From the NCBI GenBank assembly GCA_965214255.1, contig OZ243948.1, forward strand, positions 452,916-516,915: a DNA stretch of 64,000 nt, written 5' to 3'. Source of the stretch: Alphaproteobacteria bacterium. GTDB lineage: Bacteria > Pseudomonadota > Alphaproteobacteria > SMXP01. The position numbers were made by a program, and so were the translations under genes. This document shows positions 6,724-55,650 of the stretch, one piece after another (position 1 is the first letter of the stretch; each line of letters begins with the position of its first letter). The notes beneath the pieces are model-generated. The model worked only from the letters and a program-made list of their open reading frames with translations. It was not told the DNA's origin and searched no databases.

Positions 6724-6798
6724 TATTCTTTGACCCGTCGCGGTTACTTTCAGGCCCTGGACCCGCCATTTTCAACTACTAAGATTATATGATACGTC

Positions 6799-7059: not shown

Positions 7060-7095
7060 GTGGCCGCTTGACCATTTGATTTATGGATCGGCCGT

Positions 7096-15834: not shown

Positions 15835-15845
15835 AAGATCGGGTT

Positions 15846-16541: not shown

Positions 16542-16598
16542 TATCTCGAATAGCGGGCCATGACGTCTATTTCAGGCGTATATGGTTCGCGAGACATT

Positions 16599-21013: not shown

Positions 21014-24000
21014 ATGACGGACGGACAGATCAGCCTCGACCTTGCGGGACGGCCGAGCGCCCGCGTCATCCTCGACCGCATCCGCTCCGAAAGCCGGGAC
21101 GAGTCCGAGAAGGGGCGCTGGTTCGAGCAATTGTTCATGCGGGTCGCGCTTCAACAGCCCGAGTTCGAGATCGACGGGCTGTGGCGCTGGCCCGACTGGC
21201 CCGAGCGCGAGGCGATGACCGGCCTCGATGGCCGCGACATCGGAATCGACCTCGTGGCGCGGCGGACTTCGGGAGAGTGGGTCGCGATCCAGTGCAAGTG
21301 CTACGACGACCGGCACACATTGGGTAAGGGCGAAATCGACAAGTTTCTCGGCGGCTCGCAGCAGCAGGTCTTCCGCCTGCGGTGGGTCGTGGCGACATGC
21401 CGCTGGGGACCGAATGCGGAACGGGCAATCCTGAACGCTTATCCGCAGGTCGCGCAGATCGACTTCCGCGAGTATCTCGACATCCAGGTCGAGGAGGAGA
21501 ACGCCAGCCGCCCGGTACAGGAACCCTGGCCGCTTCAGGCGGAGGCCATCGAAGACGCTGTCGCCGGACTTGGGCCCCACGACCGGGGCCGCCTCATCAT
21601 GGCCTGCGGCACGGGCAAAACTTTCACCGCCCTTCGCATCGCCGAGCAGGTCGTCGAAGACGGGCGGCGAATCCTTTTCGCGGCGCCGACCATCGCGCTG
21701 GTCTCCCAAGCGCGGCGCGAATGGCTGCGGCAGACGACGCGCAAGCTGGAGTGCATCGTCGTGTGCTCGGACCCGACCGCCGGCGGGCGCAACGAGAACG
21801 AAGACATCCGAGTGTCCGAGCTTGAGTGCCCGGTTACGACGAAACCGGCCGAGATCGCCCGCGCGCTCGACGGCGGCGGCCCGACCCGCGTCGTGTTCTG
21901 CACGTACCACTCGCTGGGCAGAGTCACCGAGGCGCAGGCGCTTCACGGCGCCCCGCAGTTCGATCTGGCCATCGCCGACGAGGCCCATCGGACGACCGGC
22001 GCGCTTCTCGGAGAGCGCGGACCCCGCGGCGCCAGGAAAGTGGACTTTCAGGAGTTCCATGACGACGCGCGGCTGCGCGCCCGCAAGCGCCTCTACATGA
22101 CCGCCACGCCGCGGCTCTACACCGAACGGTCCAAGAGCAAGCTCGCCGGACAGGGGATCAAGGTCGTCGACATGGGCGACTTAGGCGTCTACGGCCCCGA
22201 ACTCCACCGGCTGCCGTTCGCCAAAGCGGTGGACCACGGCATGCTCTCCGATTACCGGGTGATCGTTCTCGGCGTCAGCGAGGAAAGCGTGACGCCGGGA
22301 CTGCGCCGCCGGCTGGAAGGACTCGATCAATCGCAGACCCGTAAGCAGGCCCCGACCGTCAACGACATGACGCGCGTGCTCGGCGTCTCGCTCGCGGTCA
22401 ACGGCGTGACCGAAGGCAAGGCCCTGGAGCAGCCGGGCAAGCTGCCGCGCACCATGGCGTTCGCGAACAGCATTCTGCGCTCGAAGTGGTATGCCGATGC
22501 GCTCATGGAAAGCGAGGTTCTGAGGGCCACGACCCGGCGGATGAAGGACGGACGGGCGATGAAGGTCGTCGCCCGTCACCTCGATGCCTCGGCGAGCGCC
22601 CTGAAGCGCAACCGGGAACTGCGCGCGCTGGCCCATGCCGACCGTGACGAGGAATGCCGGGTGGTTTGCAACGTCAAGCTGTTCACCGAAGGGGTGGACG
22701 TGCCGCGGCTCGATGCCGTCGCGTTCCTCGACCCCCGCGACAGCCAGGTCGATGTGGTGCAGGCCGTCGGACGGGTCATGCGCAAGGCGCCGGGCAAACG
22801 TTTCGGCTACATCATCGTCCCTGTCGTCGTCGAACCGGGCCGCGACGTCGCCGCCGCGCTCGAGCACGGCAGCGAAGGCTACAGGACCGTCGGCCGGGTG
22901 CTGCGGGCGCTTCAGGCCCATGACGGACGCCTCGCGGAATCGCTGGCCAGCTTCGTCAAGGTCTACGAACAGAGCAAGGAGACGGCGCCGGGGTCGGTCG
23001 GCGGCTTGGCCGAGACCGGGAGCGAATCCATCCAGCCCGAACTCGACCTGAGGCAGGCCGAGCAGGGGATTTACGCCCATGTCGCCGCCGCTTCGGGGCT
23101 GGGCAAGCCCGGCCGCCTCGTCGCCGACGAGATCGCCGACGCCGTCCGCCGCGCCAGCGCCGTGCTCGCGCAAGAAGAATTGGAAGACCCTCTCGCGTCG
23201 GCCCTCGACCTCGTGCCGGAGGACGACGGCGGGGCGAAGGGCGTTTGCACCGTCGCCGCGCTCATGCTCTGCAACGCCTGCCTGCTCCAGCGCCGCCTGC
23301 GCGACGAGCCGGAAATGAAGATGATCGTGCGGCTCGACAAGGTCGCGGGCGCGGGCAACCCGAGAGAGGTTCTCAGGATCGCCTGGGAGTCGATCCTCGA
23401 AAAGGACTACGCGCCGGTGTTCAGGCCCGCTCTCGCGGTCCTCGCGGCTCTGCGCGACGCCAAGGCCGTCGACGACGCCGTCCGCGCCCTTGCCGAGTGC
23501 GCCAACCGCGTTGCCGATTCCTTGAGCGATCTCGGCTACGACCACGCGGGGCCGCTCTACCATCGCATTCTCGGCTCCGCCAAGAGCGACGGCGCGTTCT
23601 ACACCAACAACCTTTCGGCGGTCATGCTCGCGCGTCTGGCGCTCGGCGAGGACTTCGCCGACTGGTCGAACCGGGACGCGGTGGCGGGACTGCGGATCAT
23701 CGACCCCGCGTGCGGAACCGGGACGCTGCTGATGGCGGCGCTTCGAACCGTCAAGGCGCGCGTCGCCGCTGCCGGAGAGATGACCGCCGAGGACCGCAGC
23801 GTTCTGCACAAGCGGCTGGTGGAAGACGTGCTGTGCGGCCTCGACATCAACCGCCACGGCGTCCAACTCGCCGCCTGCAACATGACCCTCGGCGCCCCGA
23901 GCGTCGACTACGAACGCATGAACCTCGTCACCATGCCCCATGGACCGCAGAGAGACGGAGCGCCGAAGGCCGGCTCGCTGGAAATCCTCACCGCCGCCGA

Positions 24001-24727
24001 CGATGACCGGGACCTGCGCGCGTTGACGAGGCCGCCGCGCTCTCTCGACGGCCTCGACGCCGCCCAGGTCGATGACAGCGAAGACATCCGGTTCCCCCTG
24101 CACGACCTCGACGCCGTGATCATGAACCCGCCGTTCACAGCCAACGAGAACCGGAACAAGAAATACGGCGATGTTGGCCGTAAGGCCATGCAGCGTCATG
24201 AACTTGGAATACAGGAACATGTAGAGGGCAGGGACCCGACGGCGGGCGGCGTCATTACCGCGAACAGCATCCGGACCTTCTTCAGCCCCCTCGCGGACAT
24301 GCTTTTGGACGAGACGCGGGGAACCCTCGCCACGGTGATCCCGACCGCGGCCTGCACCGGGCCGAGCGGCGCGGCGGAACGCAGATTCCTCGCCCGACGC
24401 TTTCACGTCGAAACCGTGGTGACCAGCCACGACCCGCGGCGGCCGAACTTCAGCGAGAACACGAACATCCATGAATCGCTGCTCATATGCCGTCGGCGAA
24501 AAGCGGGCGATGGGGACGACCGACCGACCCGCTTCGTCGCCCTGCGCGCGATGCCCTCGACGCCGGAGGAGGCCGTCGAGGCCGTGAACGCCGTCCGTAA
24601 GGGCGCCGCCGGCAAGTGGACCGCCCCCCCCCAGCTGCGAGCAGCCCGCGGCGCGCATCGCGGAGGGAGACTGGCGCCCGTGCCAGTTTTTCGACGGGAA
24701 GCTCGTAACCGCCGCGATGCGGCTTGA
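21014..24727 (+). CDS. Type ISP-like single-polypeptide restriction-modification enzyme (Mrr_cat nuclease + SF2 helicase-like motor + gamma-class N6-adenine methyltransferase), N-terminal ~1237 aa; truncated by a frameshift at a C9 tract
   Basis: N-terminal PD-(D/E)xK Mrr_cat_2 motif …DIGIDLVARRTSGEWVAIQCKCY…; helicase motif I MACGTGKTF, motif II DLAIADEAHR, motif VI QAVGRVMR; methyltransferase motif I IIDPACGTGTLLMAA and motif IV VIMNPPF; ATG at 21014 with GGGAG RBS; the reading frame decays right after the C9 run (24624–24632). Confidence 0.8.
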   Translation: MTDGQISLDLAGRPSARVILDRIRSESRDESEKGRWFEQLFMRVALQQPEFEIDGLWRWPDWPEREAMTGLDGRDIGIDLVARRTSGEWVAIQCKCYDDRHTLGKGEIDKFLGGSQQQVFRLRWVVATCRWGPNAERAILNAYPQVAQIDFREYLDIQVEEENASRPVQEPWPLQAEAIEDAVAGLGPHDRGRLIMACGTGKTFTALRIAEQVVEDGRRILFAAPTIALVSQARREWLRQTTRKLECIVVCSDPTAGGRNENEDIRVSELECPVTTKPAEIARALDGGGPTRVVFCTYHSLGRVTEAQALHGAPQFDLAIADEAHRTTGALLGERGPRGARKVDFQEFHDDARLRARKRLYMTATPRLYTERSKSKLAGQGIKVVDMGDLGVYGPELHRLPFAKAVDHGMLSDYRVIVLGVSEESVTPGLRRRLEGLDQSQTRKQAPTVNDMTRVLGVSLAVNGVTEGKALEQPGKLPRTMAFANSILRSKWYADALMESEVLRATTRRMKDGRAMKVVARHLDASASALKRNRELRALAHADRDEECRVVCNVKLFTEGVDVPRLDAVAFLDPRDSQVDVVQAVGRVMRKAPGKRFGYIIVPVVVEPGRDVAAALEHGSEGYRTVGRVLRALQAHDGRLAESLASFVKVYEQSKETAPGSVGGLAETGSESIQPELDLRQAEQGIYAHVAAASGLGKPGRLVADEIADAVRRASAVLAQEELEDPLASALDLVPEDDGGAKGVCTVAALMLCNACLLQRRLRDEPEMKMIVRLDKVAGAGNPREVLRIAWESILEKDYAPVFRPALAVLAALRDAKAVDDAVRALAECANRVADSLSDLGYDHAGPLYHRILGSAKSDGAFYTNNLSAVMLARLALGEDFADWSNRDAVAGLRIIDPACGTGTLLMAALRTVKARVAAAGEMTAEDRSVLHKRLVEDVLCGLDINRHGVQLAACNMTLGAPSVDYERMNLVTMPHGPQRDGAPKAGSLEILTAADDDRDLRALTRPPRSLDGLDAAQVDDSEDIRFPLHDLDAVIMNPPFTANENRNKKYGDVGRKAMQRHELGIQEHVEGRDPTAGGVITANSIRTFFSPLADMLLDETRGTLATVIPTAACTGPSGAAERRFLARRFHVETVVTSHDPRRPNFSENTNIHESLLICRRRKAGDGDDRPTRFVALRAMPSTPEEAVEAVNAVRKGAAGKWTAPPQLRAARGAHRGGRLAPVPVFRREARNRRDAA
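24624..24632 (+). repeat. Homopolymeric C9 tract at the frameshift point inside the Type ISP-like R-M gene
   Basis: …GTGGACCGCCCCCCCCCAGCTGCGAGC…; C8 or C11 would give an uninterrupted ORF. Confidence 0.9.
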
Positions 24728-25409
24728 ACGGACGAAGGGGCTCGCGCCGCTCGGCGGGCAATATCGTCTCGGGCCCGCAGGGCAGCGTATTCGCGATGCC
24801 TTCCGTCCCGCCGCCGACGGCGGTTACCGCGTATTCTGGGGCCGCTCGAAGGACTTGCGGACGACCATGGAGGCCGCCCCGGAACGGAATGTCGCCGACA
24901 AGAAAGAAGCGCTCGCCGCGCGTTACCGGCAACAGGCGGGGCACCTGTTGTTGGCGGCGAAGTTCAACACGCAATCCGGTCGGCTGGTGGCGATTTTCAG
25001 CGCCGCGCCCGCTCTGGGCTCGATGTGGGTTCCCGTTCAGGCCCGCGCGATGAGCGTGGAAGAGGCGAAAGCGCTGTGCGCATGGTGCAACGGCACGCTC
25101 GGCATGCTCGGATTCCTCATGAGACGAGGATCAACGCTGATGAATCCGTCGTTCTCGCAGGCCGATCTGGCCACGCTGCCCGTGCCGGACTTCAAGACGG
25201 CGAGCGCCGCCGTCCTCGCCGCGGCCTACGAGGAGACGAAGCGCGCCCCGGTAAAGCCGTGGAAGAACGCCGCCGATGACGACATGCGCGACCGTCTCGA
25301 CAAGGCGGCGGCGCGGACGACGGGGATCGATATCGAAACGATCAGGGACTTGAGAGCGCGGATCGGCCGCGAGCCGACCGTCTCCAACGAACCCATCGCG
25401 TTCGATTAG
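24717..25409 (+). CDS. C-terminal (putative target-recognition) segment of the Type ISP-like R-M enzyme, in the +1 frame relative to the upstream part
   Basis: This frame is open from directly after the C9 tract (…PP|SCEQPAARIAEGDWRPCQFFDGKLVTAAMRLERTKGLAPL…) to 25409; deleting one C fuses it to the upstream ORF, giving a ~1465-aa protein, the size of LlaGI-type enzymes. Confidence 0.6.
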   Translation: MRLERTKGLAPLGGQYRLGPAGQRIRDAFRPAADGGYRVFWGRSKDLRTTMEAAPERNVADKKEALAARYRQQAGHLLLAAKFNTQSGRLVAIFSAAPALGSMWVPVQARAMSVEEAKALCAWCNGTLGMLGFLMRRGSTLMNPSFSQADLATLPVPDFKTASAAVLAAAYEETKRAPVKPWKNAADDDMRDRLDKAAARTTGIDIETIRDLRARIGREPTVSNEPIAFD

Positions 25410-43092: not shown

Positions 43093-43109
43093 GATAACCG
43101 TGGGACAGC

Positions 43110-44588
43110 ATGCAGAACGTTGCCGTATCGACTCAGGACGTGTTTTGGACGAGTTTGGCGCTCGCCGCCCCCGAGTGCATCTTGGCGGTCGGGGCGATAG
43201 CGCTTTTACTGATCGGCGTTTTCGGGGACGACGGACGGACGAGATGGATATTGTGGGCCTCGATTATCGTTCTCGCAATCGCCGCCGTTTTTGTCATTTT
43301 TCCCGAGCCCGTTCGCACTTTGGGTTTCGGCGGCAGTTTCGTTTTTGATCCGTACGGCCGCTTTGTAAAGATTCTCATCTATATCGCGTCCGCAACTTCC
43401 CTTGTCATGTCTCAGGATTTCTTGCGAGACGAAAAGATCGAGCGGTTCGAATATCCCGTTCTCGTTCTATTGGCGACCTTGGGCATGAGCATGATGGTCT
43501 CGGCCAACGACCTTATCGCGCTTTATATGGGGATTGAATTGCAGAGTCTGGCGCTCTATGTCCTGGCCTCGTTCAATCGCGACAGCTTGAGATCAACGGA
43601 GGCGGGGCTCAAATATTTTGTCTTGGGCGCGCTGTCTTCCGGTCTGCTTCTTTACGGTTGTTCGCTGATTTACGGATTTACCGGCACCGTTGACTTCGAG
43701 ACTCTAAGAACCGTGCTGGACGCCGGGGAACTTGACGTTGGCGTCAGCTTCGGTTTGGTGTTTTTATGCGCGGGCTTGGCATTCAAGGTCTCGGCCGTGC
43801 CGTTTCACATGTGGACGCCCGACGTTTACGAAGGGGCGCCGACGCCTGTTGTGGCATTGCTTTCGGCAGCGCCAAAGGCGGCGGCGCTCGCTCTTTTCGT
43901 TCGTGTTCTTGTGTGGCCGTTCGCGAGCGATGAAGCCGCCGCGTCGCCTCAATGGCAGGAAATCATTATCGTAATTTCCGCGTTGAGTATGCTTGTCGGC
44001 GCATTTGCCGCGATCGGACAGCGCAACATCAAACGGCTCATGGCCTATTCGTCGATCGGCCATATGGGATACGCCCTTGTGGGGCTGGCGGCCGGCTCGG
44101 AAGAAGGCGTCCGCGGCGTCCTCATTTATCTTACGATCTATCTTCCCATGACGCTCGGCGTATTTGCCTGTATTTTGGCGATGAGGCGCAAAGAGGGCAT
44201 GGTCGAAGATATCGGGGCGTTGGCGGGCCTGCGCCATAATCAACCCGCGATGGCCCTGGCGCTTCTCGTGTTGATGTTTTCTCTCGCCGGCATTCCCCCG
44301 TTGGCGGGTTTTTTCGCAAAGTTCTACGTGCTCGTAGCTGCCGTGAATTCAGGTCTTTACGCCCTTGCCATCATTGGTGTTTTGGCGAGTGTCGTCGCGG
44401 CCTATTACTATGTACGGATTGTCAAAATCATGTACTTTGACGAACCGGCCGTTCCTTTCGTTCGGCCCGTATCAGGCGGGTTGAATACCGTCGTCGTCGT
44501 TTCCACGGTCTTTACCGTATTCTATGCTTTCTTTGCTTTTTGGCTGCTTGACATTACAAACGCCGTTGCCTCTTTCCTCTTTACATAA
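43110..44588 (+). CDS. nuoN: NADH-quinone oxidoreductase subunit N
   Basis: 492-aa ND2-type antiporter-like subunit; last gene of the nuo operon. Confidence 0.92.
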   Translation: MQNVAVSTQDVFWTSLALAAPECILAVGAIALLLIGVFGDDGRTRWILWASIIVLAIAAVFVIFPEPVRTLGFGGSFVFDPYGRFVKILIYIASATSLVMSQDFLRDEKIERFEYPVLVLLATLGMSMMVSANDLIALYMGIELQSLALYVLASFNRDSLRSTEAGLKYFVLGALSSGLLLYGCSLIYGFTGTVDFETLRTVLDAGELDVGVSFGLVFLCAGLAFKVSAVPFHMWTPDVYEGAPTPVVALLSAAPKAAALALFVRVLVWPFASDEAAASPQWQEIIIVISALSMLVGAFAAIGQRNIKRLMAYSSIGHMGYALVGLAAGSEEGVRGVLIYLTIYLPMTLGVFACILAMRRKEGMVEDIGALAGLRHNQPAMALALLVLMFSLAGIPPLAGFFAKFYVLVAAVNSGLYALAIIGVLASVVAAYYYVRIVKIMYFDEPAVPFVRPVSGGLNTVVVVSTVFTVFYAFFAFWLLDITNAVASFLFT

Positions 44589-45354
44589 AGATTCAGGCGC
44601 GGCCTCCAATTTGGCTGTTCCGGACGGCTATGACCTTCGGTGCTTCGAGGAGATCGACAGCACGAATGAAGAAGCCCTGCGGCTCGCGCGGGGAGGCTTG
44701 ACCCGGCCTACCTGGATTTGGGCGGAGCGTCAGACGGCCGGCCGGGGTCGGCGAGGGCGCGTTTGGGTATCGCAGACGGAAAATCTCTTTTGCACGCTTG
44801 CGCTGCCTGTCGACCGCCCGCCGGCCGTCGCAGCCCAGCTCTCGTTCCTCTCAGCGCTTGCCGTCCGACGGCTTATCGAAACTCATTCAAGCGCCTCCAC
44901 CGTTAAAATGAAGTGGCCCAATGACGTCCTCCTCGAAGGAAAAAAGGTTTCGGGTATTCTTCTCGAATCGGTCACGGGAGGCTCCGATCGACCGTCCCTC
45001 GTTGCCGTGGGCGTCGGCGTTAATTTGATGTCCTGCCCGAGCGGGACCGATTTTCCCGCGACCGCGCTCGCCTCCGTTTGCGACCCGCCGTCGCCGCGCC
45101 GCGCCATGGAAGAGTTGATGCGTCATTTCGATGATTGGTTGGGCATATGGATGACGCGCGGATTTGAACCCATCCGGTACGCCTGGCTTTCGGCGGCCCA
45201 AGGTTTGGGCCGGGAGATAGAGGTGCGGTTACCCGGCAGGACGCTGACCGGTATATTTGATACGATCAGCGAGACAGGCGAACTTGTGCTTATCGATTCC
45301 GACGGTGAAAAGACCGAAATCGCGGCCGGCGACGTCTTCTTTGGAAATGAATGA
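44524..45354 (+). CDS. birA: Biotin--[acetyl-CoA-carboxylase] ligase (group I BirA, no N-terminal HTH domain)
   Basis: …WAERQTAGRGRRGRVWVS… BPL signature GRGRRG; start uncertain because the ORF overlaps the nuoN 3' end; a TTG at 44611 (…AVPDGYDLRCF…) is a plausible true start. Confidence 0.85.
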   Translation: MLSLLFGCLTLQTPLPLSSLHKDSGAASNLAVPDGYDLRCFEEIDSTNEEALRLARGGLTRPTWIWAERQTAGRGRRGRVWVSQTENLFCTLALPVDRPPAVAAQLSFLSALAVRRLIETHSSASTVKMKWPNDVLLEGKKVSGILLESVTGGSDRPSLVAVGVGVNLMSCPSGTDFPATALASVCDPPSPRRAMEELMRHFDDWLGIWMTRGFEPIRYAWLSAAQGLGREIEVRLPGRTLTGIFDTISETGELVLIDSDGEKTEIAAGDVFFGNE

Positions 45355-45370
45355 GAGGGGTGAACCGGAC

Positions 45371-46150
45371 ATGTTGCTGGTTATCGATGCGGGCAATACC
45401 GATACGCTCTTCGCCGTTTTCGACGGCGACCGGCTTCGAGGCAAATGGCGGCTCGCAACGGACGACAGGCGCACCGCCGATGAATACATCGCCGCACTCA
45501 ATCAACTCGTGTTTCTTGGCGGAATCGACCACAAGTCGATTGACGTCGTTGTGGTTGCCAGCGTGGTTCCCCAAGCGCTGAAGCATGTGTCGGAATTTTG
45601 CCAAAAATGGGTCCGCTGCGCGCCCCTGGTCGTCGGGTCGCCTGAACTCTCCCTCAATCTTGAGATTCGCGTGGATGATCCGGCCGCCGTCGGAGCGGAC
45701 CGCCTGGTCAATGCCATAGGCGCTCATGTCAAATATGACGGGGCCTTGATCGTTATCGATTTCGGGACGGCGACCACATTGGACGTCGTTGCCGAAGACG
45801 GCGCTTATGAGGGAGGCGTCATCGCGCCGGGCATCAATTTGTCCGCTCAGGCGCTCTACATGGCGGCCGCTCAGTTGCCGATGATCTCCATCGAGCCGCC
45901 GCAGGCCGTTGTCGGTAAAGATACCGTGGAGGCCATGAAGTCCGGACTATATTGGGGTTACGTGAGTTTGATCGAGGGCCTCGTGGCGCGCATCAAGTCG
46001 GAAATCGACAAACCATGCACGGTCATAGCGACAGGCGGCGTCGCCGGACTGTTCAGGAACGCCTCCCCGGTCATCGATCACATTGAAACGGATTTGACGA
46101 TCTTCGGACTATTGGAGATCTACAAGCGACACAAAACCGCCGATACATGA
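45371..46150 (+). CDS. coaX: Type III pantothenate kinase
   Basis: MLLVIDAGNTDTLFAVFDGD… ASKHA-fold N-terminus; …GTATTLD…; 259 aa. Confidence 0.9.
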   Translation: MLLVIDAGNTDTLFAVFDGDRLRGKWRLATDDRRTADEYIAALNQLVFLGGIDHKSIDVVVVASVVPQALKHVSEFCQKWVRCAPLVVGSPELSLNLEIRVDDPAAVGADRLVNAIGAHVKYDGALIVIDFGTATTLDVVAEDGAYEGGVIAPGINLSAQALYMAAAQLPMISIEPPQAVVGKDTVEAMKSGLYWGYVSLIEGLVARIKSEIDKPCTVIATGGVAGLFRNASPVIDHIETDLTIFGLLEIYKRHKTADT

Positions 46151-46169
46151 ATCGCCCGTCAGCCTGATC

Positions 46170-47858
46170 ATGCCTAAATCCCCATTTCCCAAAAAGGGTG
46201 AAGAACTCGTCTTTCTGCCGTTGGGCGGCGCGGGGGAAATCGGCATGAACCTCAATCTTTACGGTTATGGTCCGAAAGGTCGCTACAAGTGGCTTATGGT
46301 CGATTTGGGGGTCATGTTCGGCAATGAAAAAACACCGGGCATCGAGCTTATCATGGCGGACCCTCAATACATTCTTCCGTTCAAGGATCAACTTCTCGGT
46401 TTAGTCTTGACTCACGGCCACGAGGATCACATTGGAGCCGTGGCGCACCTTTGGCCGATGCTGGGGTGTCCCATATATGCGACGCCTTTCACGGCTTCTC
46501 TTGTGCGCTACAAACTCGAGGAGGCCGGCCTGGTCGATGACGCGGAAATTATCGTCGTGCCGTTGGGCGGGAGGCGCCGACTCGGACCGTTCGACATTGA
46601 ACTGATAACGCTCACTCATTCGATACCGGAACCCAATGCGCTCGCTATTCGCACGCCTTTGGGTTGTGTATTGCACACGGGCGATTGGAAAATCGATCCG
46701 GGTCCGTTGGTCGGTGACGTCGTTGACGAGGACTGTTTGCGTGATCTCGGCCAAAGCGGCGTCGCGGCCATGGTGTGCGATTCGACCAATGTATTCGTCC
46801 CCGGCACGGCAGGGTCGGAAGCGGACGTGCGCCGAAGTCTTTTGGAACTGGTGGGCGGTCTCGAACGGCGTGTTGTGGTCACGTGTTTTGCCTCGAACAT
46901 AGCCCGCCTCGACACCGTCGCACATGTTGCCAAGGCGCATGGTCGTCATTTGTGCGTCGTGGGGCGTTCCATCCATCGCATGGTCGAGGCCGCGCGTTCC
47001 GCCGCCATGCTTCGGGGTTTTCCGTCTCCGGTCACGGAAGAGGACGCCGGACGCCTTCCTCCCGACAAGGTATTGTACCTGTGTACGGGAAGCCAGGGAG
47101 AACCGCGCGCGGCTCTACGACGCATTGTGGACGGAGAACACTCGCATATCGTATTGGAAAAGGGCGATGCGGTCATATTTTCGTCGCGAGTCATTCCGGG
47201 AAACGAGGTCTCGATTTCCGAGATGCAGAATAAACTGGCGGAGAAGGGGGTTCGGATCGTTACGGAACGGGATCACTTTGTTCACGTGTCCGGTCATCCC
47301 TGCCGCGACGAACTGGCGATGATGTATCAATGGGTGCGTCCGAAGTTGGCGATACCCGTCCACGGCGAAGCACGGCATCTCTTCGAGCACGCGGAATTGG
47401 CGCGACAGCTTCAGGTCCCCAAGGCGATCGTACCGAAAAACGGAACCATGATCCGCATCGCGCCGGGGGAAAGCCGTGTCTTGAGGCAGGTCGCCAACGG
47501 GCGGCTCTATTTGGACGGCCACGTCATCGTGAACCGGGATAAAAGTCATGTGAAGGAAAGACGCAAGATGTCCTATTCGGGTTATGTGGGCATAGCCTTG
47601 GCAATCGATCGCGAGAACGGAGTGATCGCGGCTCCCGAGATCAGACTGCAAGGACTGTCCGGCGCCCAAAAGGGCAGCGGAGAAGATCTATGTGACGATA
47701 TCGGACAAACCGTGCTCGATAGTTTTGGCAGGATTCCCAAGAGAAAGCTAAACCAGAACATGGCCATCGAGCAGACCATTCGGCGTGCAACACGACGATT
47801 CTTGACCCGTCGCCTGGGGAAAAAACCCGTGATCGACGTTTCCGTCATCAGGGTCTGA
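46170..47858 (+). CDS. rnj: Ribonuclease J (metallo-β-lactamase/β-CASP family)
   Basis: LTHGHEDHIGA zinc motif; β-CASP region; 562 aa. Confidence 0.9.
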   Translation: MPKSPFPKKGEELVFLPLGGAGEIGMNLNLYGYGPKGRYKWLMVDLGVMFGNEKTPGIELIMADPQYILPFKDQLLGLVLTHGHEDHIGAVAHLWPMLGCPIYATPFTASLVRYKLEEAGLVDDAEIIVVPLGGRRRLGPFDIELITLTHSIPEPNALAIRTPLGCVLHTGDWKIDPGPLVGDVVDEDCLRDLGQSGVAAMVCDSTNVFVPGTAGSEADVRRSLLELVGGLERRVVVTCFASNIARLDTVAHVAKAHGRHLCVVGRSIHRMVEAARSAAMLRGFPSPVTEEDAGRLPPDKVLYLCTGSQGEPRAALRRIVDGEHSHIVLEKGDAVIFSSRVIPGNEVSISEMQNKLAEKGVRIVTERDHFVHVSGHPCRDELAMMYQWVRPKLAIPVHGEARHLFEHAELARQLQVPKAIVPKNGTMIRIAPGESRVLRQVANGRLYLDGHVIVNRDKSHVKERRKMSYSGYVGIALAIDRENGVIAAPEIRLQGLSGAQKGSGEDLCDDIGQTVLDSFGRIPKRKLNQNMAIEQTIRRATRRFLTRRLGKKPVIDVSVIRV

Positions 47859-47929
47859 ATCGTTTGAATGAAAAATCCCGGAAAATGTTGAAAGGTCCAA
47901 TTCATTTCACGATTTGATTCGGAGAACTC

Positions 47930-48349
47930 ATGATCGGCAAGTTGAACCATGTGGCGATTGCAGTGCCTGACGTACAGGCCGCCGCCCGGATATACCGCGA
48001 TGTCCTCGGCGCGCAGGTGTCCCAAGCCGTGCCCCAGCCCGAGCACGGCGTCACGACGGTTTTTGTCGAATTGCCGAACGCCAAACTGGAACTCATCGAA
48101 CCGCTGGGAGACGACTCGCCCATCGCCAATTTTCTTCGTAAGAATACGGTCGGCGGTATTCACCATATTTGTCTCGAAGTCGAAGACATCGACGGGGCCT
48201 GCAGGTCGTTGGAAAAGAAAGGTGTAAGGATCATCGGCGACGGCAAACCGAGAACCGGCGCCCACGGCAAACCCGTCATCTTTTTGCATCCGAAAGATCT
48301 TTGCGGCACGTTGATCGAACTTGAGGAGGTCGGACCGGCGCGGCCCTGA
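47930..48349 (+). CDS. mce: Methylmalonyl-CoA epimerase (VOC family)
   Basis: MIGKLNHVAIAVPDVQAAARIYRDVLGA…GGIHHICLEV…GAHGKPVIFLHPKD matches MCEE throughout. Confidence 0.88.
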   Translation: MIGKLNHVAIAVPDVQAAARIYRDVLGAQVSQAVPQPEHGVTTVFVELPNAKLELIEPLGDDSPIANFLRKNTVGGIHHICLEVEDIDGACRSLEKKGVRIIGDGKPRTGAHGKPVIFLHPKDLCGTLIELEEVGPARP

Positions 48350-48479
48350 AGCGCCGGCGGTTTTGCTTTGGGATGTAAATCCGCCGATATGTTCGTCGCT
48401 TTCGTCTCGATGACCTTCATCCGGATGCGGTATCGCCCGCTCACCGGCGTAGTTTTGTTTACGGATAGGAACCAGGAAA

Positions 48480-49814
48480 ATGAGACTGTCGCGGTTCTTC
48501 TTGCCGACTCTTAGGGAAACGCCCGCGGAAGCTCAGATCGTTTCTCATCGCCTGATGCTGCGTGCGGCCATGATTCGTCAGTCTTCCGCCGGTATCTATT
48601 CCTGGCTGCCGCTGGGCCTGCGCGTTTTGCAAAAGATCGAAGATATCGTCAGAGAGGAACAAAACCGTGCGGGCGCCGTAGAGTTGCTCATGCCCACCAT
48701 ACAGTCGGCGGACCTGTGGAAGGAGAGCGGCCGTTATGACGACTACGGACAGGAAATGCTGCGTATCAATGACCGGCATGATCGAGAGCTTTTGTACGGT
48801 CCGACGAACGAGGAACTGATTACGGATATTTTCCGTTCGACAATTCGCTCCTACAGGGATCTGCCGATAAACCTCTACCATATTCAATGGAAATTCCGTG
48901 ACGAGATCAGGCCCCGATTCGGCGTCATGCGCGGCCGCGAATTTCTGATGAAAGATTCCTATTCATTCGATCTGAGTTTCGAAGCGGCGAGACATTCCTA
49001 CAACCAGATGTTCATCGCGTATTTGCGAACATTCGAACGTATGGGTTTGAAGGCCGTGCCGATGACGGCGGATCCGGGTCCCATAGGCGGCGACATGAGT
49101 CACGAATTCGTGATTCTTGCGGAAACGGGCGAGAGCGAATTTTTCTGTCACAAGGATCTCATGGAGATCGAGGCTCCGGGCGAAAACATCGACTACCGGA
49201 CCGATTTATCGTCTCTGATCGAGGAGCGGACGCGTCTTTATGCGGCGACGGACGAAAAACACGACGCCGGGAAATTCGAAGCCGAGGTTCCCGAGGATAA
49301 GCGGCTGAGCGCGCGCGGCATCGAGGTCGGACACATCTTTTATTTCGGAAAGAAGTATTCGGAGCCCATGGGCGCCGTGGTCGCGGGTCCGGACGGAGAA
49401 CGGACCGCCGTCGAAATGGGCTCCTATGGCATCGGCGTCTCGCGTCTCGCAGGCGCGATCATCGAAGCGAGTCACGATAATGCCGGCATAATTTGGCCTG
49501 TTTCCGTCGCGCCGTTTCACGTCGGACTCATCAATTTGAAAGCGGGGGAGGGCGCAACGGACCGGGCGTGTGAAGACATGTATACGCGATTGTCCAATGC
49601 GAATCTTGACGTGCTCTATGACGACACCGACGCACGGGTAGGGTCGAAATTCAGCAATATGGATTTGATCGGTCTGCCCTGGCAGATCATTGTCGGCCCG
49701 AAGGGGCTTAAAAACGGCGTTGTAGAGGTCAAGAACCGCAAGACCGGTCAACGCCATGAACTGTCCTCCGAGGCCGCCGTGACCAAGCTCGTATCCGAAG
49801 GGCCGGCGTCTTGA
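48480..49814 (+). CDS. proS: Proline--tRNA ligase (short alphaproteobacterial form lacking the editing insertion)
   Basis: Class II aaRS motifs; …[25 protein letters not shown]…; C-terminal anticodon-binding domain. Confidence 0.93.
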
Positions 49815-51067
49815 CCTTTCCGTTCGCACGGTTTGAGTGGATGTTGGCGGGACGCTATTTGCGGGCCCGCAGGCGCGAGAGTTTCATTTCCGTTGCGTCC
49901 GGGTTCTCTTTGGTGGGCATCGCGCTCGGCGTGGCGACGCTGATTGTCGTTATGGCCGTCATGAACGGCTTTCGCATCGAGTTGATGGACCGGGTGTTGG
50001 GGGTCAACGGTCACATCATGATCTACGGCGCCACGGACGGCCGCCTGTATGACTTCGATCGGACTGCGGATCTTGTCGAGTCCTTGGAGGGCGTCGAGCG
50101 CGTCGCGCCTATCGTTCAGGGTCAGGTCATGGCCTCGGCGAACGATCTCTCTTCCGGCGCTCTCGTGCGCGGGGTGAGAGAGGCGGACCTGAAAGCGTTC
50201 AAGGTCGTTTCCGACAAAATTTTATCGGGCACGCTGGACGGTTTCGACGGAGCGGGCGGGATCGCGGTCGGAAGTCGTCTGGCGCAAAGCATGGGAGTCG
50301 GTGTGGACGGGCAAATCACTCTCATATCGCCGCGCGGGGCGGTCACGCCGTTCGGGATGACGCCTCGGATCAAGTCCTATCCGGTCGTCGCGGTCTTTGA
50401 AATCGGCATGTCTGAATATGATGCAAGTTTCGTGTTCATGCCCTTCGACGAAGCGCAGCTTTATTTCAACGTGGAAAATGCCGCGACGGCATTGGAAATC
50501 ATGGTCGATGATCCGGACAACGTGGACTCCCTGCGCGCCCTCATGCAAGCGGAACTGGACCAACCGGCCCGAATATTCGATTGGAAACAAACGAATTCCA
50601 CTTTCGTGAGCGCCCTCGAAGTGGAAAAGAACGTCATGTTTCTGATCTTGACGTTGATCATTTTGGTGGCCTCGCTGAACATTATTTCCGGTCTGATCAT
50701 GCTCGTGAAAGACAAGGGACAGGATATCGCCGTTTTGAGGAGCATGGGGGCGACCAGGGGCGCCGTCATGAGGGTCTTCTTCATTGCGGGGTCCGCCATA
50801 GGCGTCGTGGGAACGTTTGCCGGTTTGACGATCGGGGTCGTGTTCTGCGCCAATATCGAGACATTGCGCCAATGGCTGTCGTCGTTGACGGGAACGGAGC
50901 TTTTTTCACCGGAAATCTATTTTTTGGCGACCATGCCTGCCGAGATAGTGGCGAGCGAGGTGGCGGCCATCGTCTTTATGGCGCTCGGTTTGTCTTTTAT
51001 GGCGACGCTTTATCCGTCTTGGCGCGCGGCGCGCCTGGATCCGGTCGAAGCGCTTAGATATGAATAG
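49811..51067 (+). CDS. lolE: Lipoprotein-releasing system transmembrane permease (LolC/E family)
   Basis: …[47 protein letters not shown]… plus FtsX-like C-terminal TM bundle; TTG start overlapping the proS stop. Confidence 0.88.
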
Positions 51068-51078
51068 AGTGTAAGCGG

Positions 51079-51768
51079 ATGGCGAGGGGGGAAACGCCCG
51101 TATTGGAATTGCGCAACGTCGTGCGATCGTACCCGCAAGGCCGGACACGGCTCGAGGTGTTGAGGGGCGCCAACCTTGCGGTTTTGAAAGGCGAGGCGGT
51201 GGGTTTGCTGGGGCCCTCGGGGTCCGGAAAGTCCACTTTGCTGCATATCGCGGGGTTGCTTGAACGCCCTGACGGCGGCCGGGTACTGTTGCGCGGCAAG
51301 GATTGCGCGTCGCTGAGCGACGGCCAGCGCACGAGGATCCGCCGGGAAGATCTGGGCTTCGTCTATCAGTTCCATCACTTGCTGCCCGAATTCTCCGCCT
51401 TGGAAAATGTCACCCTGCCCCGACTCATCGGCGGACACGACCGCCGCCGCTCGCAAAGGGAAGCCGAGCGTTTGTTGTCGGACCTGGGCCTTTCGGGGCG
51501 CCTGGCCCATCGACCCATGGAGCTTTCAGGGGGCGAGCAGCAACGCGTCGCCATCGCGCGCGCTTTGGCAAACGGGCCCGGCATTCTTTTGGCCGACGAA
51601 CCTACGGGGAACCTCGATCCGACCACCGCGGACTCCGTTTTCGACAGCCTGCTTCACCTTGCCCACGATCAAGGACTGGCGGCGGTCGTCGCCACCCACA
51701 ATATCAATCTCGCCGATCGTTTCGACCGCCTTGTCCATCTTGAAAACGGTGAAATCGTAGAGGCTTAG
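51079..51768 (+). CDS. lolD: Lipoprotein-releasing system ATP-binding protein
   Basis: Walker [10 protein letters not shown]; ABC signature [15 protein letters not shown]; Walker [12 protein letters not shown]. Confidence 0.92.
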
Positions 51769-51914
51769 AAGCTTTACTTGATGTTTATTCAGAACTGAAG
51801 TGCAGCCCTGAAGGCAAGGGTTTTGTCAGGAGTCCGCCGCGTGGGAGAGCGCGGGGCGGGCGCCCATGCGGGCGGCGGCCCGTCCGTTCATGACCGCGTC
51901 TTTTCGGTCCCGGT

Positions 51915-52853
51915 TCATCGCCGCCGTTTCCGACGTCCCTTGATGTCGGCCGTCAGCGGCGCGCGCATGGTTTCATAGAGCTTGAACAGATGCCGGACGC
52001 GCTCGCGTTCGGAGGCGAAGCCGCTACGTCGGTAGAGACGGTCCACGGCGCTATCGAGGCGGGCATGGGCGCGGCGCAAGTCCGGCGGCGTCAGGTCCGG
52101 GTCGTAGAGATTGGCCAGCGCGGCCCCGGCGTGGGCGGCGCGGGCGTCGAGCACGGCTTGGGCGAGCGGTTCCAGCCTCAAAAGGTCGGCGCTTCCGTCC
52201 GCAAAGCCCGGCGGCAGCGGGAAGGTATTGTAGACGAGGCCGATGGAGTAGCGGTAGTCGCTTTTCAGTCGTCCGCCGATCTGGCGCAGCCAGGCCATGT
52301 GCATGGCGGAGGTGAGCAGGGCAAAGTCGGTGAGCGCGGCGTTTTCCAGAATCTTCATGGCATTGCTGGGAATGACCGGCGGTTCAAGCCAGCCGATGGG
52401 CGCGTATTCGCGCCGCTCCGAACTCGTTTCGGGCATGACCAGGAAAGGCGCGTTGGGGATGACGTTGACGTGGTAGAGCGTCGGCGTTGCCGCGAGCTTG
52501 ACCGTGGGTCCGCTCTTGCTGGCCTCGCGGTAGGCGCGGACGGCGGCGATCCGTTCGCGCACCCGCGGCAACTCTGCCAGCACATCAGGCGGCGCGTCGT
52601 GCAAGGCCAGGATCCAGCGCTCGCCGCCTTGCAGATATTCACGCGCGCCGACGAACGGGTGCAGATACGGCGCGGCCCTCGGTTCCGCGTCCAGGAACGC
52701 GGCGCGTTCCGCCTCGTCGAAGATGTAATGCCCGCCGTCGATGGGCTTGGAGCCGATGATCAGCCGCCCCATGCCGTTGATCGGGCGGCTTTCCTCGCGC
52801 ACCGTGAGGTGCGGGTCGCTCAGATCTCCGGCATCGAACAGATAGGGCGACAA
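51915..52853 (-). CDS. C-terminal segment of an MmeI-family (Type IIL/IIG) restriction-modification enzyme; out of frame with the upstream part
   Basis: …GSKPIDGGHYIF…, …VYNTFPLP… and the C-terminal helical region match the conserved MmeI-family C-terminal half; this frame stays open upstream to the G9 tract. Confidence 0.65.
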   Translation of the reverse strand: MSPYLFDAGDLSDPHLTVREESRPINGMGRLIIGSKPIDGGHYIFDEAERAAFLDAEPRAAPYLHPFVGAREYLQGGERWILALHDAPPDVLAELPRVRERIAAVRAYREASKSGPTVKLAATPTLYHVNVIPNAPFLVMPETSSERREYAPIGWLEPPVIPSNAMKILENAALTDFALLTSAMHMAWLRQIGGRLKSDYRYSIGLVYNTFPLPPGFADGSADLLRLEPLAQAVLDARAAHAGAALANLYDPDLTPPDLRRAHARLDSAVDRLYRRSGFASERERVRHLFKLYETMRAPLTADIKGRRKRRR

Positions 52854-54717
52854 CGCCGCGTGGCGGCTTTCCTCCGGCGCGCCCTTGATGTCGGGATAAT
52901 TGAACAGACGCTTCTGCGCTCGTGTACGCCCCCCCCCAACCGAGCCCGACGATCACCACATGCACGTGGGCCTTGCCGCGTGCGTCCGAGCCCCAGACGA
53001 AGGTGCGGTGCGCGAAGGCGATTTCCAGCCCGCAGCGCTCGAACAGCAGCGGCCAAAGCTGCGCCACCTGTTCGCCCTGGCTGATCGAGTTGGTGGCGAC
53101 GAAGCCGATACGGGTACCGCCGCCTCTCACATACTCCCCCGCCTTGATGAACCACGCGGCGACGTAATCCAGCGTCCCCCCGCTCTTGCCCAGCGCCGCG
53201 ATGCGGCGTACCTGCGCGCGCTGCTCCGGCGTCTGAAACTTCGCCCCCGCAAACGGCGGGTTGCCGAACAGGTATGAGCAGGTCTGCGGCGGCAGCACCG
53301 CCCGCCAGTCGATCTCCAGCGCGTCGCCGTGGACGATGCGCGGCGATTTCTCAAGGGGGATGCGCGCATAAGTCCGGCCGAACTCCAGGCTCAGCCGGTT
53401 GTTCATGATGTGGTCCATCATCCACAGCGCGGTCTCCGCGATGCGCGCCGGGAACTCGCCGAGTTCGATCCCGTAGAACCGGTCGACGTCGATCACCGAC
53501 AGGGTCTCAGCCAGAGCGTCGGTCTGCCGTCCGTCCGGCGCCCTCGGGTGGATTTCCTTCAGCACCTCGATTTCCAGAAGCCTCAGTTCGCGGTAGGCGA
53601 TGATGAGGAAGTTGCCGCAGCCGCAGGCGGGGTCGAAAAAACGCATGGCGCCCAGCTTCTCCTGAAACGCCAGCAGGTCGGGGCGCCGGCGGCTGTCGCG
53701 GCGCGCTTGCAGCCGCGCGAACTCGGCGCGCAGATCGTCCAGAAACAGCGGCTCGATCACTTTCAAGATGTTCGTCTCGGTGGTGTAGTGCGCGCCTTGG
53801 GCGCGGCGCTCCGCCGGGTCCATGACCGACTGGAACAGCGCGCCGAAGACCGCGGGCGAGATGTTCGACCAGTCGAAGCGGCAGGCGTCGAGCAGCTTGG
53901 CGCGCATGTCTGAGTCGAAGGAGGGGATGCGCAGGGGCCCGTCGAACAGGTCGCCGTTGATATGGGGGAAGCGGGCCAGATCCTCGTCCAGCGTGGCGAC
54001 CCGCTCGCTCTCCGGCGTGTCCAGCACCTGGAACAGTTGCGCCAGCCAGGGCCCGAGGCCGGCGCCGTCCTCGGCGGTGCGGGTCTCGATGAAATCGAGG
54101 AAGATGTCGCGCGGCTCGAAGATGCCGGTATCGTCCGCGAACAGGCAGAAGACGATGCGCACGAGGAACCGCTCCAGGTCGTGCCCGCGGTAGCCGGCCG
54201 CGTCGAGGGCGTCGTGGAGCCGTCCGACCAGTTCTGCGGCCTCGATATTGGCCGGGTCCTGGTCTCGGAAGGCGCGGCGCTCGACGCCGAGGATGAAGCC
54301 GAACGCCTCGACATGGGCGGGCAGGTCGGCGAGGGCGAAGGCCGTGGTTCGGCGCTGGTCCAGATCGTGAAGCTCGAAGGTCTGAAAATCGCTCACCAGA
54401 ATGTAGCGGGGTCTCTCGCGCTCGGGCAGGGCGTCGAAATACGCCCCCGCCTGGTCCAGAGCCCCGGCGAGACCGCGCCCCGCGCTTTTCTGCTCGACCA
54501 TCAGCACGCCGGGCCAGAACAGGTCGATGAAGCCGCGCCTCTCGTCCAGCTTGGCCACGTGCGCCTCGTAGCGCGCCACCGTGCGGCGGCGGACGCCGAA
54601 CACTTCGAAGAAGTCGTTGTAGAAACTCTGGGTCTCGCCTCTCTCGTAAGACGCCTCGCCCCACTCCCGGGCAAAAGCGGCCGCCCGCGCGCGTACCTCG
54701 TTCCATGACAGGCGCAC
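52639..54717 (-). CDS. MmeI-family Type IIL restriction-modification enzyme, N-terminal nuclease + N6-adenine methyltransferase part; truncated by a frameshift at a G9 tract
   Basis: N-terminus MRLSWNEVRARAAAFAREWGEASYERGETQSFYNDFFEVFGV…FIDLFWPGVLMVEQKSAGRGL closely parallels the MmeI nuclease domain (D-x-E-x-K); methyltransferase motif I FDPACGCGNFLIIAY and motif IV GNPPFAG; the coding sense is lost directly after …HVHVVIVGLGWGG (poly-G). Confidence 0.8.
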   Translation of the reverse strand: MRLSWNEVRARAAAFAREWGEASYERGETQSFYNDFFEVFGVRRRTVARYEAHVAKLDERRGFIDLFWPGVLMVEQKSAGRGLAGALDQAGAYFDALPERERPRYILVSDFQTFELHDLDQRRTTAFALADLPAHVEAFGFILGVERRAFRDQDPANIEAAELVGRLHDALDAAGYRGHDLERFLVRIVFCLFADDTGIFEPRDIFLDFIETRTAEDGAGLGPWLAQLFQVLDTPESERVATLDEDLARFPHINGDLFDGPLRIPSFDSDMRAKLLDACRFDWSNISPAVFGALFQSVMDPAERRAQGAHYTTETNILKVIEPLFLDDLRAEFARLQARRDSRRRPDLLAFQEKLGAMRFFDPACGCGNFLIIAYRELRLLEIEVLKEIHPRAPDGRQTDALAETLSVIDVDRFYGIELGEFPARIAETALWMMDHIMNNRLSLEFGRTYARIPLEKSPRIVHGDALEIDWRAVLPPQTCSYLFGNPPFAGAKFQTPEQRAQVRRIAALGKSGGTLDYVAAWFIKAGEYVRGGGTRIGFVATNSISQGEQVAQLWPLLFERCGLEIAFAHRTFVWGSDARGKAHVHVVIVGLGWGGAYTSAEASVQLSRHQGRAGGKPPRGVVALSVRCRRSERPAPHGARGKPPDQRHGAADHRLQAHRRRALHLRRGGTRRVPGRGTEGRAVSAPVRRRA
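52929..52937 (-). repeat. Homopolymeric G9 (C9 on the + strand) tract at the frameshift point inside the MmeI-family gene
   Basis: + strand …cgtgtacgCCCCCCCCCaaccgag…; a G8 would read …GLGWGGRTRAQKRLFNYPDIKGAPEESRHAALSPYLFDAGD… straight into the downstream ORF. Confidence 0.9.
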
Positions 54718-54720: not shown

Positions 54721-55650
54721 CTACAGTGCTTCCTGATCGAAATAGTCCTCGTCGATCTGCTTGATCTCGTGAGTGACGCGCGTCCGCACGCCGACTCCAT
54801 GCTGAACCATGAGTTGCGCCAGTTTCTCGCCGTCGATGAGCACGATCCGCTTCGGGCTCCGCGCCAAATATTTCTCGGCCGCAGGCGTGAATCTGGCGGT
54901 GGTGACGAATACGCCCTTGGTCATGCCCGCAGCGTCGAGCGCGCCCGCGAAGTCGCGCAGGGCGCTCTCACCGACGGTGTTGCCTTCAGCGTACCTTTTC
55001 GCCTGTATGTAGATCTTATCCAAGCCAAGCGCGTCCTCATTTATTATGCCGTCGATCCCGCCGTCGCCTGAACCCCCGGTCACTTGGCCTCTCTCGGCAA
55101 CGCCTCTACCGTAGCCCATTTTGATCAACAAATCGCGAACCGCGCGTTCAAGAAACGCGGGTTCGGCGCTGCGAACCCGGTCCAGCACGTCGGCTTCCAG
55201 TTCGCCGCGCAATCGCAGGGCGGCGCGTTCCAGCGCTTCCTCCGGCGTTTCAGAAATGTCATCGCTCCGAGTTTCCGTCTCACCCTTGTCGGAAGACGGA
55301 GCGTTCGCCCTGCGCGACCACCCGGCGTAATCCGGGTACTCTCTCAGCAGTTTTATGTCGATGCGCGAAGGGTCGCGGGACAACAAGTCTGCGCCTTCCT
55401 GCGTCAATCTATATACGCCGCGGCCAACGCGTTCCAGAAGACCGGCACTGTGCATGTACTTTACGGCCCAACTCACGCGGTTCACGAATATCGTCTGGCG
55501 GCCGCTCGGGAGCAGTTCCCGAACATCGTCGGCGGAAAGCCCCTCGGCGGCGGCGACCCGGTCGCGAATTTCCGACACCGGCGTATCGGCGCGGGAGGCG
55601 AACGCCTTGAGGACGGGAAGCATCAATGACTGAAAGTCAGGAACGGGCAT
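54721..55650 (-). CDS. mrr: Type IV (modification-dependent) restriction endonuclease Mrr
   Basis: Mrr_N winged-helix N-terminus MPVPDFQSLMLPVLKAF…; C-terminal Mrr_cat …GGIDGIINEDALGLDKIYIQAKRY… PD-(D/E)xK/QxK motif. Confidence 0.85.
   Translation of the reverse strand: MPVPDFQSLMLPVLKAFASRADTPVSEIRDRVAAAEGLSADDVRELLPSGRQTIFVNRVSWAVKYMHSAGLLERVGRGVYRLTQEGADLLSRDPSRIDIKLLREYPDYAGWSRRANAPSSDKGETETRSDDISETPEEALERAALRLRGELEADVLDRVRSAEPAFLERAVRDLLIKMGYGRGVAERGQVTGGSGDGGIDGIINEDALGLDKIYIQAKRYAEGNTVGESALRDFAGALDAAGMTKGVFVTTARFTPAAEKYLARSPKRIVLIDGEKLAQLMVQHGVGVRTRVTHEIKQIDEDYFDQEAL

Follow-up and report, generated by a model that had tools for sequence, protein, structure and literature searches.

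Poly-G frameshift in an MmeI-family restriction-modification gene of an uncultured alphaproteobacterium, a possible homopolymer contingency locus in the OFF state

The window analysed here, i.e. the whole 64-kb stretch of contig OZ243948.1 (positions 452,916 to 516,915) from an uncultured alphaproteobacterium, has the gene order nuo-birA-coaX-rnj-proS-lolCD-dnaE, which would suit a proteobacterium. On its minus strand lies a restriction-modification (R-M) gene of the MmeI family (Type IIL), hereafter called copy A, whose reading frame is broken at a run of nine G residues. The gene and the two open reading frames (ORFs) into which it is divided are as follows.

51915..54717, minus strand: MmeI-family Type IIL R-M gene, copy A, with a +1 frameshift (assigned with Pfam and phmmer on the protein obtained after removal of one base)
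52929..52937, minus strand: G9 homopolymer (C9 on the plus strand) at which the frame breaks; codons 590-593, where the methyltransferase domain ends, ahead of the target recognition domain (TRD)
52639..54717, minus strand: upstream ORF of 692 aa without the TRD, consisting of 592 native residues and a 100-aa out-of-frame tail
51915..52853, minus strand: downstream ORF of 312 aa with the TRD and the C-terminal domain (PADLOC REase_MTase_IIG PDLC03598, profile positions 621-909, E 5.9e-96)

The minus-strand letters at the tract are CTC GGT TGG GGG GGG GCG TAC, i.e. GGTT-G9. The original prediction, made from the sequence of the window, had placed the break of an MmeI-like gene at this G9 (C9 at 52929-52937), with sense lost straight after ...IVGLGWGG. 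Its coordinates and frame logic were correct, and the MmeI homology of the 692-aa ORF (54717..52639) ends at ...VIVGLGWGG. The 312-aa ORF (52853..51915) is in the frame obtained by a one-base deletion at the tract. With one base deleted (G8), copy A encodes 933 aa with a single terminal stop, and with two bases added (G11) it encodes 934 aa (935 codons including the stop). The G8 frame thus joins the 312-aa ORF as had been predicted, in a product of 933 aa rather than the size of about 950 aa given at that time. Past G9, the 0 frame of copy A is open for 100 codons. The frame is equally restored by deletion of one of the two T's before G9, or of the T after GCG, so the extra base is not assignable to G from the sequence alone. 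A 30-aa ORF (window 51826-51918, minus strand), called as a gene in related contigs of ENA, overlaps the MmeI stop codon (ATGA).

MmeI_N, MmeI_hel, MmeI_Mtase, MmeI_TRD and MmeI_C of Pfam all match the G8-repaired copy A, with E values of 1e-22 to 1e-83, and PF20464, PF20465, PF20473, PF20466 and PF20467 each score above the cut-off. The domains concerned are an N-terminal nuclease, a helical spacer, a gamma-class N6-adenine methyltransferase, the TRD and a helical C-terminal domain. The repaired protein aligns end to end with the MmeI structure (PDB 5HR4; phmmer, residues 2-924, E 2.9e-264). Its motif GFIDLFWPGVLMVEQK is aligned with GFVDLFWPGILLIEMK of MmeI, the pattern D-x9-E-x-K corresponding to D70/E80/K82, and methyltransferase motifs I (FFDPACGCGNF) and IV (GNPPFAG) are intact. 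All of the motifs on which the family assignment had originally been based, GFIDLFWPGVLMVEQK, FDPACGCGNF, GNPPFAG, GSKPIDGG and VYNTFPLP, were found in the repaired protein. Enzymes of the MmeI family modify a lone strand with N6-methyladenine (m6A) and cleave about 20/18 nt from an asymmetric site. The uninterrupted frame of the family is missing from the window and from every related copy except one metagenome contig (L002, see below), the others having the +1 frameshift; copy A is a member of the MmeI family by descent that is not presently encoded as one polypeptide.

At the tract site, 120 homologues (78-81% identical, all about 930 aa) have the sequence GL-DRREAA-RAEKRLF, in which the hexapeptide is variable. 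The G8 reading of copy A, GL-GWGGRT-RAQKRLF (GLGWGGRTRAQKRLF), is of the same length as GLDRREAARAEKRLF of the 120 homologues. Eighty species-representative MmeI homologue loci, many of them from metagenome-assembled genomes (MAGs) of sponge symbionts and from many phyla by record title, were also surveyed. Each of the 80 gave one tblastn segment spanning nearly the whole protein, indicating that there is no frameshift among those loci, and a G/C run of 8 nt or more within the homologue gene was present in none of them (0/80). By these comparisons the poly-G tract appears as a lineage-specific innovation at a tolerant, variable loop between the methyltransferase and the TRD. The G-rich CGG-CGG-GAG codon context of the loop seems prone to becoming poly-G. 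A gammaproteobacterial homologue (L010) has an in-frame G7 in the tract loop, at about 5805 (gene nt 1805), in the sequence GLDRRGGQALAGKRLF.

Further sequences across the tract were obtained by exact look-up of the neighbouring LolD protein, which led to two SPAdes-named metagenome contigs in ENA, L001 (ERZ21849000 NODE_378) and L002 (ERZ21848999 NODE_1407), with 99.75-99.9% identity to positions 41079-54716 of the window. In L001 the tract is C9 followed by AA, identical to the window (GGTT-G9 on the minus strand, 13 nt), and the 13.6 kb that L001 shares with the window contain no indel difference. When the 692-aa ORF was used as the query, a protein identical to it in all 692 aa (P0391) was found on a contig of 2,787,154 bp in NCBI/ENA, presumably the one from which the window derives. 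The 90% cluster of P0391 contains three further proteins, all with the sequence ...GLGWGG at the break followed by AYTSAEAS.... One of these, the product of a second paralogue (copy B), is encoded on P0391's own 2.79-Mb contig, its G9 state being deduced at the protein level. Another comes from a third sample (ERZ25070786), being encoded on the 53-kb contig L087, where the DNA is again GGTT-G9. When a 288-aa segment spanning the tract was used as the query, the best matches had at most 83% identity. Genome and metagenome contigs were also scanned for exact DNA patterns of the tract in which the middle was allowed to vary, with no match, and exact-protein look-ups for Mrr, the 312-aa ORF, DnaE, NuoF, NuoE, the Rieske protein, P0391 and P0475 gave no record.

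The locus of the second paralogue is seen on L087.

L087:5219-8036: MmeI-family copy B, in the gene order CN-hydrolase, NmrA, MmeI-B, PNPOx

The homology between the copies begins precisely at the start codon, which is GTG in copy A and ATG in copy B. Over nt 1-1950 they have 96-98% DNA identity and in the TRD core (nt 1950-2550) 50-60%; they are alike again near the 3' end, and not at the extreme 3' end. This pattern indicates a swap of the TRD, and the two enzymes would therefore probably differ in specificity. Repaired to G8, copy B is an intact ORF of 938 aa. As the MmeI gene is duplicated, the repertoire exceeds the one first proposed, and the tracts of the two copies do not count as independent events.

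The finding of the paralogue also changed the reading of the two metagenome contigs. In L001 the sequence passes into NmrA right where MmeI starts, which marks this contig as an A/B mosaic, from either assembly collapse or real recombination, and L002 is B-like just upstream of the tract. Within the MmeI gene both contigs change over from the sequence of one copy to that of the other, either by repeat-induced chimerism or by real recombination. Accordingly, L001 no longer counts as an allele of its own, and L002 was downgraded from a clean allele in frame to a doubtful one.

Between copies A and B, dN/dS (NG86) was 0.107 before the tract (38 synonymous and 13 non-synonymous changes, dS 0.092) and 0.117 after it, the second value coming from small counts (5 synonymous and 2 non-synonymous changes in 58 alignable codons). 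Three of the four post-tract changes visible between two frameshifted copy-B alleles, also a small count, were synonymous in the G8 frame. Additional disabling lesions, which the original prediction had named as the mark of a plain pseudogene, were found in neither copy, and dN/dS is about 0.1 on both sides of the tract. These values point to purifying selection on both sides of the tract and to a gene that is not a decayed pseudogene.

The original prediction had described the MmeI gene as the second, unrelated single-chain R-M gene of the window to be interrupted at a 9-nt homopolymer. The first of these is a Type ISP-like gene.

21014..25409, plus strand: Type ISP-like single-chain R-M gene with a +1 frameshift (Mrr-like nuclease, SF2 helicase, N6-adenine methyltransferase, C-terminal region)
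24624..24632, plus strand: C9 homopolymer within the Type ISP-like gene, where it codes for two inserted residues (PP)

Its protein matches Mrr_cat_2, ResIII, Helicase_C and N6_Mtase of Pfam, and the structures of LlaBIII (4XQK, E 4e-91) and LlaGI (5FFJ, E 1.3e-77). When repaired to C8 (-1), it is collinear with homologues of about 1470 aa, e.g. P0241 (60% identity in one stretch), by alignment to which the start at 21014 was chosen. The PP insertion at C9 is missing from all 15 aligned homologues. An Mrr-like nuclease, an SF2 helicase-like ATPase, an N6-adenine methyltransferase and a TRD are thus combined in one chain as in Type ISP enzymes, the C-terminus being the part that presumably acts as TRD. 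A second R-M enzyme is indeed broken at the only other 9-nt run of the window, and both genes need a -1 change at their tracts, as had been stated. To our knowledge, in a literature that was not searched exhaustively, no phase-variable Type ISP enzyme has been described.

No homopolymer of the window exceeds 7 nt apart from the C9 runs at 24624-24632 and 52929-52937, and after these the longest G/C run has 6 nt; the two R-M genes are therefore interrupted at the two longest homopolymers in 64 kb, as originally observed. G/C runs of 6, 7, 8 and 9 nt were found 12, 0, 0 and 2 times, compared with a Markov-1 expectation per 64 kb of 21, 5.2, 1.5 and 0.34 (longer runs, about 0.13). In 86 kb of sequence from the window's organism the corresponding counts were 13, 0, 0 and 4, with no longer run, and in 802 kb of homologous loci from other genomes (58% GC) they were 125, 18, 0 and 0, with one run of 15. 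The four 9-nt tracts in 86 kb are in the Type ISP enzyme, in both MmeI paralogues and in one multi-pass membrane protein, i.e. in classes of genes that are typically phase-variable. R-M genes make up about 13% of the window, and the chance of both of its tracts falling in them is about 1.6%. The original statement that the coincidence is hard to ascribe to chance is supported by the 802 kb of comparable loci without runs of 8 or 9 nt and weakened by dinucleotide shuffles, which gave at least two 9-mers in 17 of 100 trials.

The fourth tract is on the same contig as copy B.

L087:16794-16802, minus strand: ATG-G9 at the 5' end of a membrane-protein gene (14834-16804)

The multi-pass protein has 656 aa and no Pfam or NCBIfam match, and G9 directly follows the called ATG. 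Another ATG, with the Shine-Dalgarno (SD) sequence GAAGGA, is located 31 nt upstream of the called one with its frame shifted by one; G8 may thus be the length at which this gene is ON.

The frameshift in copy A is real, its tract is lineage-specific, and both halves of the gene are intact and under selection. A G/C homopolymer longer than the approximately 7-8 nt that mark such tracts is present inside an ORF which is full length at G8 or G11 and truncated before the TRD at G9, and purifying selection appears to have continued despite the OFF state (the post-tract counts being small). These are features of a homopolymer contingency locus, and that copy A is such a locus in the OFF state is the reading that we favour, at about even odds. 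The high frequency and reversibility of changes in tract length are the part that we infer. In the GGTT-G9 state, translation would leave the frame after residue 592, and the nuclease and methyltransferase would be made and the TRD not. Restriction and modification would be lost together, because a single polypeptide uses the same TRD for cutting and for methylation, and their joint loss would be a safe OFF state. Slipped-strand mispairing at replication could remove one G (G8) or add two (G11) and so restore the enzyme of 933 or 934 aa, the tract acting as a stochastic ON/OFF switch. The tract of copy A would be one of a small set, with those of the Type ISP enzyme, of copy B with its different TRD, and of the multi-pass membrane protein.

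The poly-G tracts of Campylobacter jejuni have a modal length of nine, with G8 changing mostly through insertion and G11 through deletion (PMC3401435). A bias of the kind seen in C. jejuni, driving G8 by insertion toward a modal length of nine, would fit two features of the present tracts, their common length of 9 and their common requirement for a -1 change: with a similar bias every tract would be at 9, and genes with an ON length of 8 would be found one base too long. The coordinated phase-variable defence repertoire that had been offered as one of two explanations gains support from the two further 9-nt tracts, from the lineage specificity of the tracts and from the purifying selection at the MmeI gene, and loses some from the five sequences that are all at 9 without length variation.

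Several observations weigh against a switching tract. The main one is that exactly G9 is found, with no length polymorphism, in each of five consensus sequences (copy A of the window, two of copy B, L001 and L002), which come from two paralogues and at least three samples and are few and non-independent. All of the tracts are in an OFF-like state, and there was no ON allele among the sequences examined. Copies A and B share this state despite a dS of 0.09, at which a highly mutable tract would be expected to differ, barring mutational bias or selection at 9. The one in-frame sequence, L002, has GGT-G9 (C9 then A on the plus strand), encodes GLGGGGRT and differs by the flanking T and not by a G. 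Its tract is 300 nt from the contig end, in the A/B mosaic region, and it has a unique H-to-N change at an invariant histidine. If this variant is real, the frame would be polymorphic at the tract site, with no evidence of slippage in the run. The search for other assemblies in which the gene is intact, proposed with the original prediction, therefore had a divided outcome, the same G9 frameshift recurring in L001 and L087 and L002 being in frame by way of the T, doubtfully so. Lastly, frameshifts outside repeats are common among the metagenome homologues of MmeI that were retrieved, which gives plain inactivation of the gene a sizeable prior.

According to the explanation by plain inactivation, a G8 (or T-G9) hot spot acquired a one-base insertion which was fixed and which spread to both paralogues by gene conversion or recombination, leaving young pseudogenes and no switching. 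R-M genes are often lost, many of the metagenome homologues are truncated or frameshifted elsewhere, and the identical GGTT-G9 in both paralogues and all strains, without length variation, is what a fixed insertion would leave; the A/B mosaics L001 and L002 show, moreover, that the assembler collapses the copies or that these recombine. A recent gene-conversion tract around G9 was considered and rejected, however, since the identical block of 147 nt is unexceptional, being no longer than other A/B identical blocks. The lack of a second lesion in either copy, the dN/dS of about 0.1 on both sides of the tract and the mostly synonymous differences, in the G8 frame, between frameshifted copy-B alleles also argue for a gene that is maintained, and inactivation would leave unexplained why 9-nt runs occur only in R-M or surface-type genes with none of 7-8 nt elsewhere. 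We regard it as unlikely, though to be taken seriously. That the true tract is G8 and was over-called in sequencing or assembly is far less probable, and the systematic homopolymer over-call which the original prediction had offered as its second explanation is largely excluded. A -1 change is required at every 9-nt tract, the C9-then-A of L002 has the same total length as C8-then-AA and could be a post-homopolymer substitution error, and the name of L087 suggests a long-read assembly, as the source of the window may also be, such assemblies being more error-prone in homopolymers. The same 13-nt GGTT-G9 is nevertheless present in L001, an independent SPAdes (short-read style) contig without indel discrepancy over its 13.6 kb, and in the L087 assembly of a third sample as well as in copy B, so an error would need to have recurred across different samples and assemblers. 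The 802 kb of similar MAG sequence without any 8- or 9-nt run likewise argues against a general over-calling of shorter runs into 9-mers.

It is also conceivable that the G9/C9 tracts are decoded without any change of the DNA, by RNA-polymerase slippage or by +1 ribosomal slippage (GGG-G / CCC-C), in which case the membrane protein and the potentially toxic enzymes, i.e. that of Type ISP and the two paralogues of Type IIL, would be made constitutively at a low, safe level. Such recoding is attractive because nine is exactly conserved, in four loci, and because the same -1 is needed by the Type ISP gene and both MmeI copies, and by the membrane-protein gene only if its SD-preceded upstream ATG is the real start. 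A run of 9 nt is about the length of the RNA-DNA hybrid. Recoding would account for the OFF-like state common to paralogues at a dS of 0.09, and for purifying selection downstream of the frameshift between alleles which both carry it, although that evidence rests on few substitutions (5:2 and 3:1). We nevertheless consider it improbable: the slippery run is accompanied by no stimulatory element, no 0-frame stop or rare codon follows the tract in the open 100 codons, the RNA folds beside the tracts are ordinary (z-scores -0.3 to +1.4), and the tract is missing from the 120 protein homologues and the 80 loci. Efficient slippage is, in addition, documented mainly for A/T runs. Trans-complementation by a separately translated 312-aa TRD fragment was considered and found unsupported, as the ORFs overlap out of frame, and we know of no precedent for it in the MmeI family. 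The small weight not given to the contingency locus, the fixed hotspot frameshift, recoding or artefact was left to other explanations.

Next to copy A, a second restriction gene was found.

54721..55650, minus strand: Mrr-type (Type IV, methyl-directed) restriction endonuclease gene (Pfam Mrr_N and Mrr_cat; PADLOC mREase_IV, E 1e-78)

Its stop is 3 nt before the start of copy A. The same Mrr-MmeI pairing is present in 5 of the 80 homologue loci, from different phyla (L005, L008, L009, L019 and L031, at about 3068-3995), with a remnant in L020, and the Mrr gene and the MmeI-family gene look like a recurrent two-gene cassette. The pairing is odd in that a methyl-directed nuclease stands beside an m6A methyltransferase.

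The MmeI subfamily to which copy A belongs has 70-80% protein identity across MAGs of Alpha- and Gammaproteobacteria, Cyanobacteria, Acidobacteriota, Gemmatimonadota, Bacteroidota, Chloroflexota, Nitrospirota, Binatia, Latescibacterota and others (L005-L084). This level of identity across phyla, many of the hosts being sponge symbionts, implies extensive horizontal transfer within that community. Many metagenome homologues (P0392-P0401, P0427, P0440 and P0448) are frameshifted at non-homopolymer positions within about 50 codons downstream of the loop, which reflects either common pseudogenisation or indel errors in the source assemblies. A Bryobacterales MAG (L038) has two full-length MmeI-family genes in tandem (4001-6787 and 6984-9770). 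In L024, an intergenic C15 run (6908-6922) is located 136 nt past the stop of the MmeI homologue and some 120 nt before a 662-aa ORF, and may be a phase-variable tract within a promoter.

Homopolymer-switched R-M enzymes are textbook knowledge in a few small-genome, host-adapted pathogens, namely Campylobacter, Helicobacter, Neisseria and Haemophilus. If copy A is a contingency locus, a small 'phasome' built on 9-nt G/C tracts would exist also in an uncultured bacterium of high GC content, with tracts in a Type ISP enzyme and in two Type IIL paralogues whose specificity domains differ, all three being single-chain R-M enzymes. The MmeI relatives of copy A are overwhelmingly from sponge-symbiont MAGs, and with such switching both defence and genome-wide methylation would vary stochastically in a community of symbionts that is known to be under heavy pressure from phages. 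Genes split by such tracts are annotated in MAGs as pseudogenes or split 'methyltransferases', and inventories of defence systems would therefore undercount them.

Compared with the prototype Type IIL enzyme MmeI of Methylophilus methylotrophus (5HR4), copy A has the same five-domain architecture at a similar length (933 aa, compared with 919 aa for MmeI), including the PD-ExK residues, methyltransferase motifs I and IV, the TRD and the C-terminal helices. It differs in that its frame is broken at a poly-G tract, which MmeI does not have, the MmeI loop at this position being two residues shorter, and in having an Mrr gene as its partner and a paralogue with an exchanged TRD. The Type ISP-like protein resembles LlaGI and LlaBIII (5FFJ, 4XQK) in having nuclease, helicase-like motor, methyltransferase and C-terminal region in one chain, with a structure match limited to the nuclease-helicase part (residues 44-667), and differs from them by the C9 tract encoding the PP insertion.

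The closest parallel in regulation is the Type IIG enzyme cj0031(c) of C. jejuni, which is phase-variable by a G9 tract and for which switching, changes in methylation and restriction of phage were shown experimentally (PMC4889913). Like copy A, it is a single-polypeptide R-M enzyme depending on an intragenic poly-G tract of about nine (PMC4889913; PMC3401435); it belongs to a different Type IIG family, whereas copy A is known from sequence only and its host is an uncultured bacterium of 57% GC. In Helicobacter pylori, the Type IIG (IIL-like) genes JHP1272 and HP1353-HP1354 are turned ON and OFF at homopolymers (poly-C, encoding PPPP) in a single-chain R-M gene, strains differ in frame, and repair of the frameshift restores activity (PMC3936762). 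Those genes have two tracts, the second of which alters specificity via an extra C-terminal TRD (PMC3936762), whereas copies A and B have one tract per gene and alternative specificity would come from the second paralogue with its different TRD. Homopolymer switching of single-chain R-M enzymes is thus already established; what is new here is the type of host, the involvement of the MmeI family proper, its duplication with swapped TRDs and a tract in each copy, and a Type ISP enzyme with the same device.

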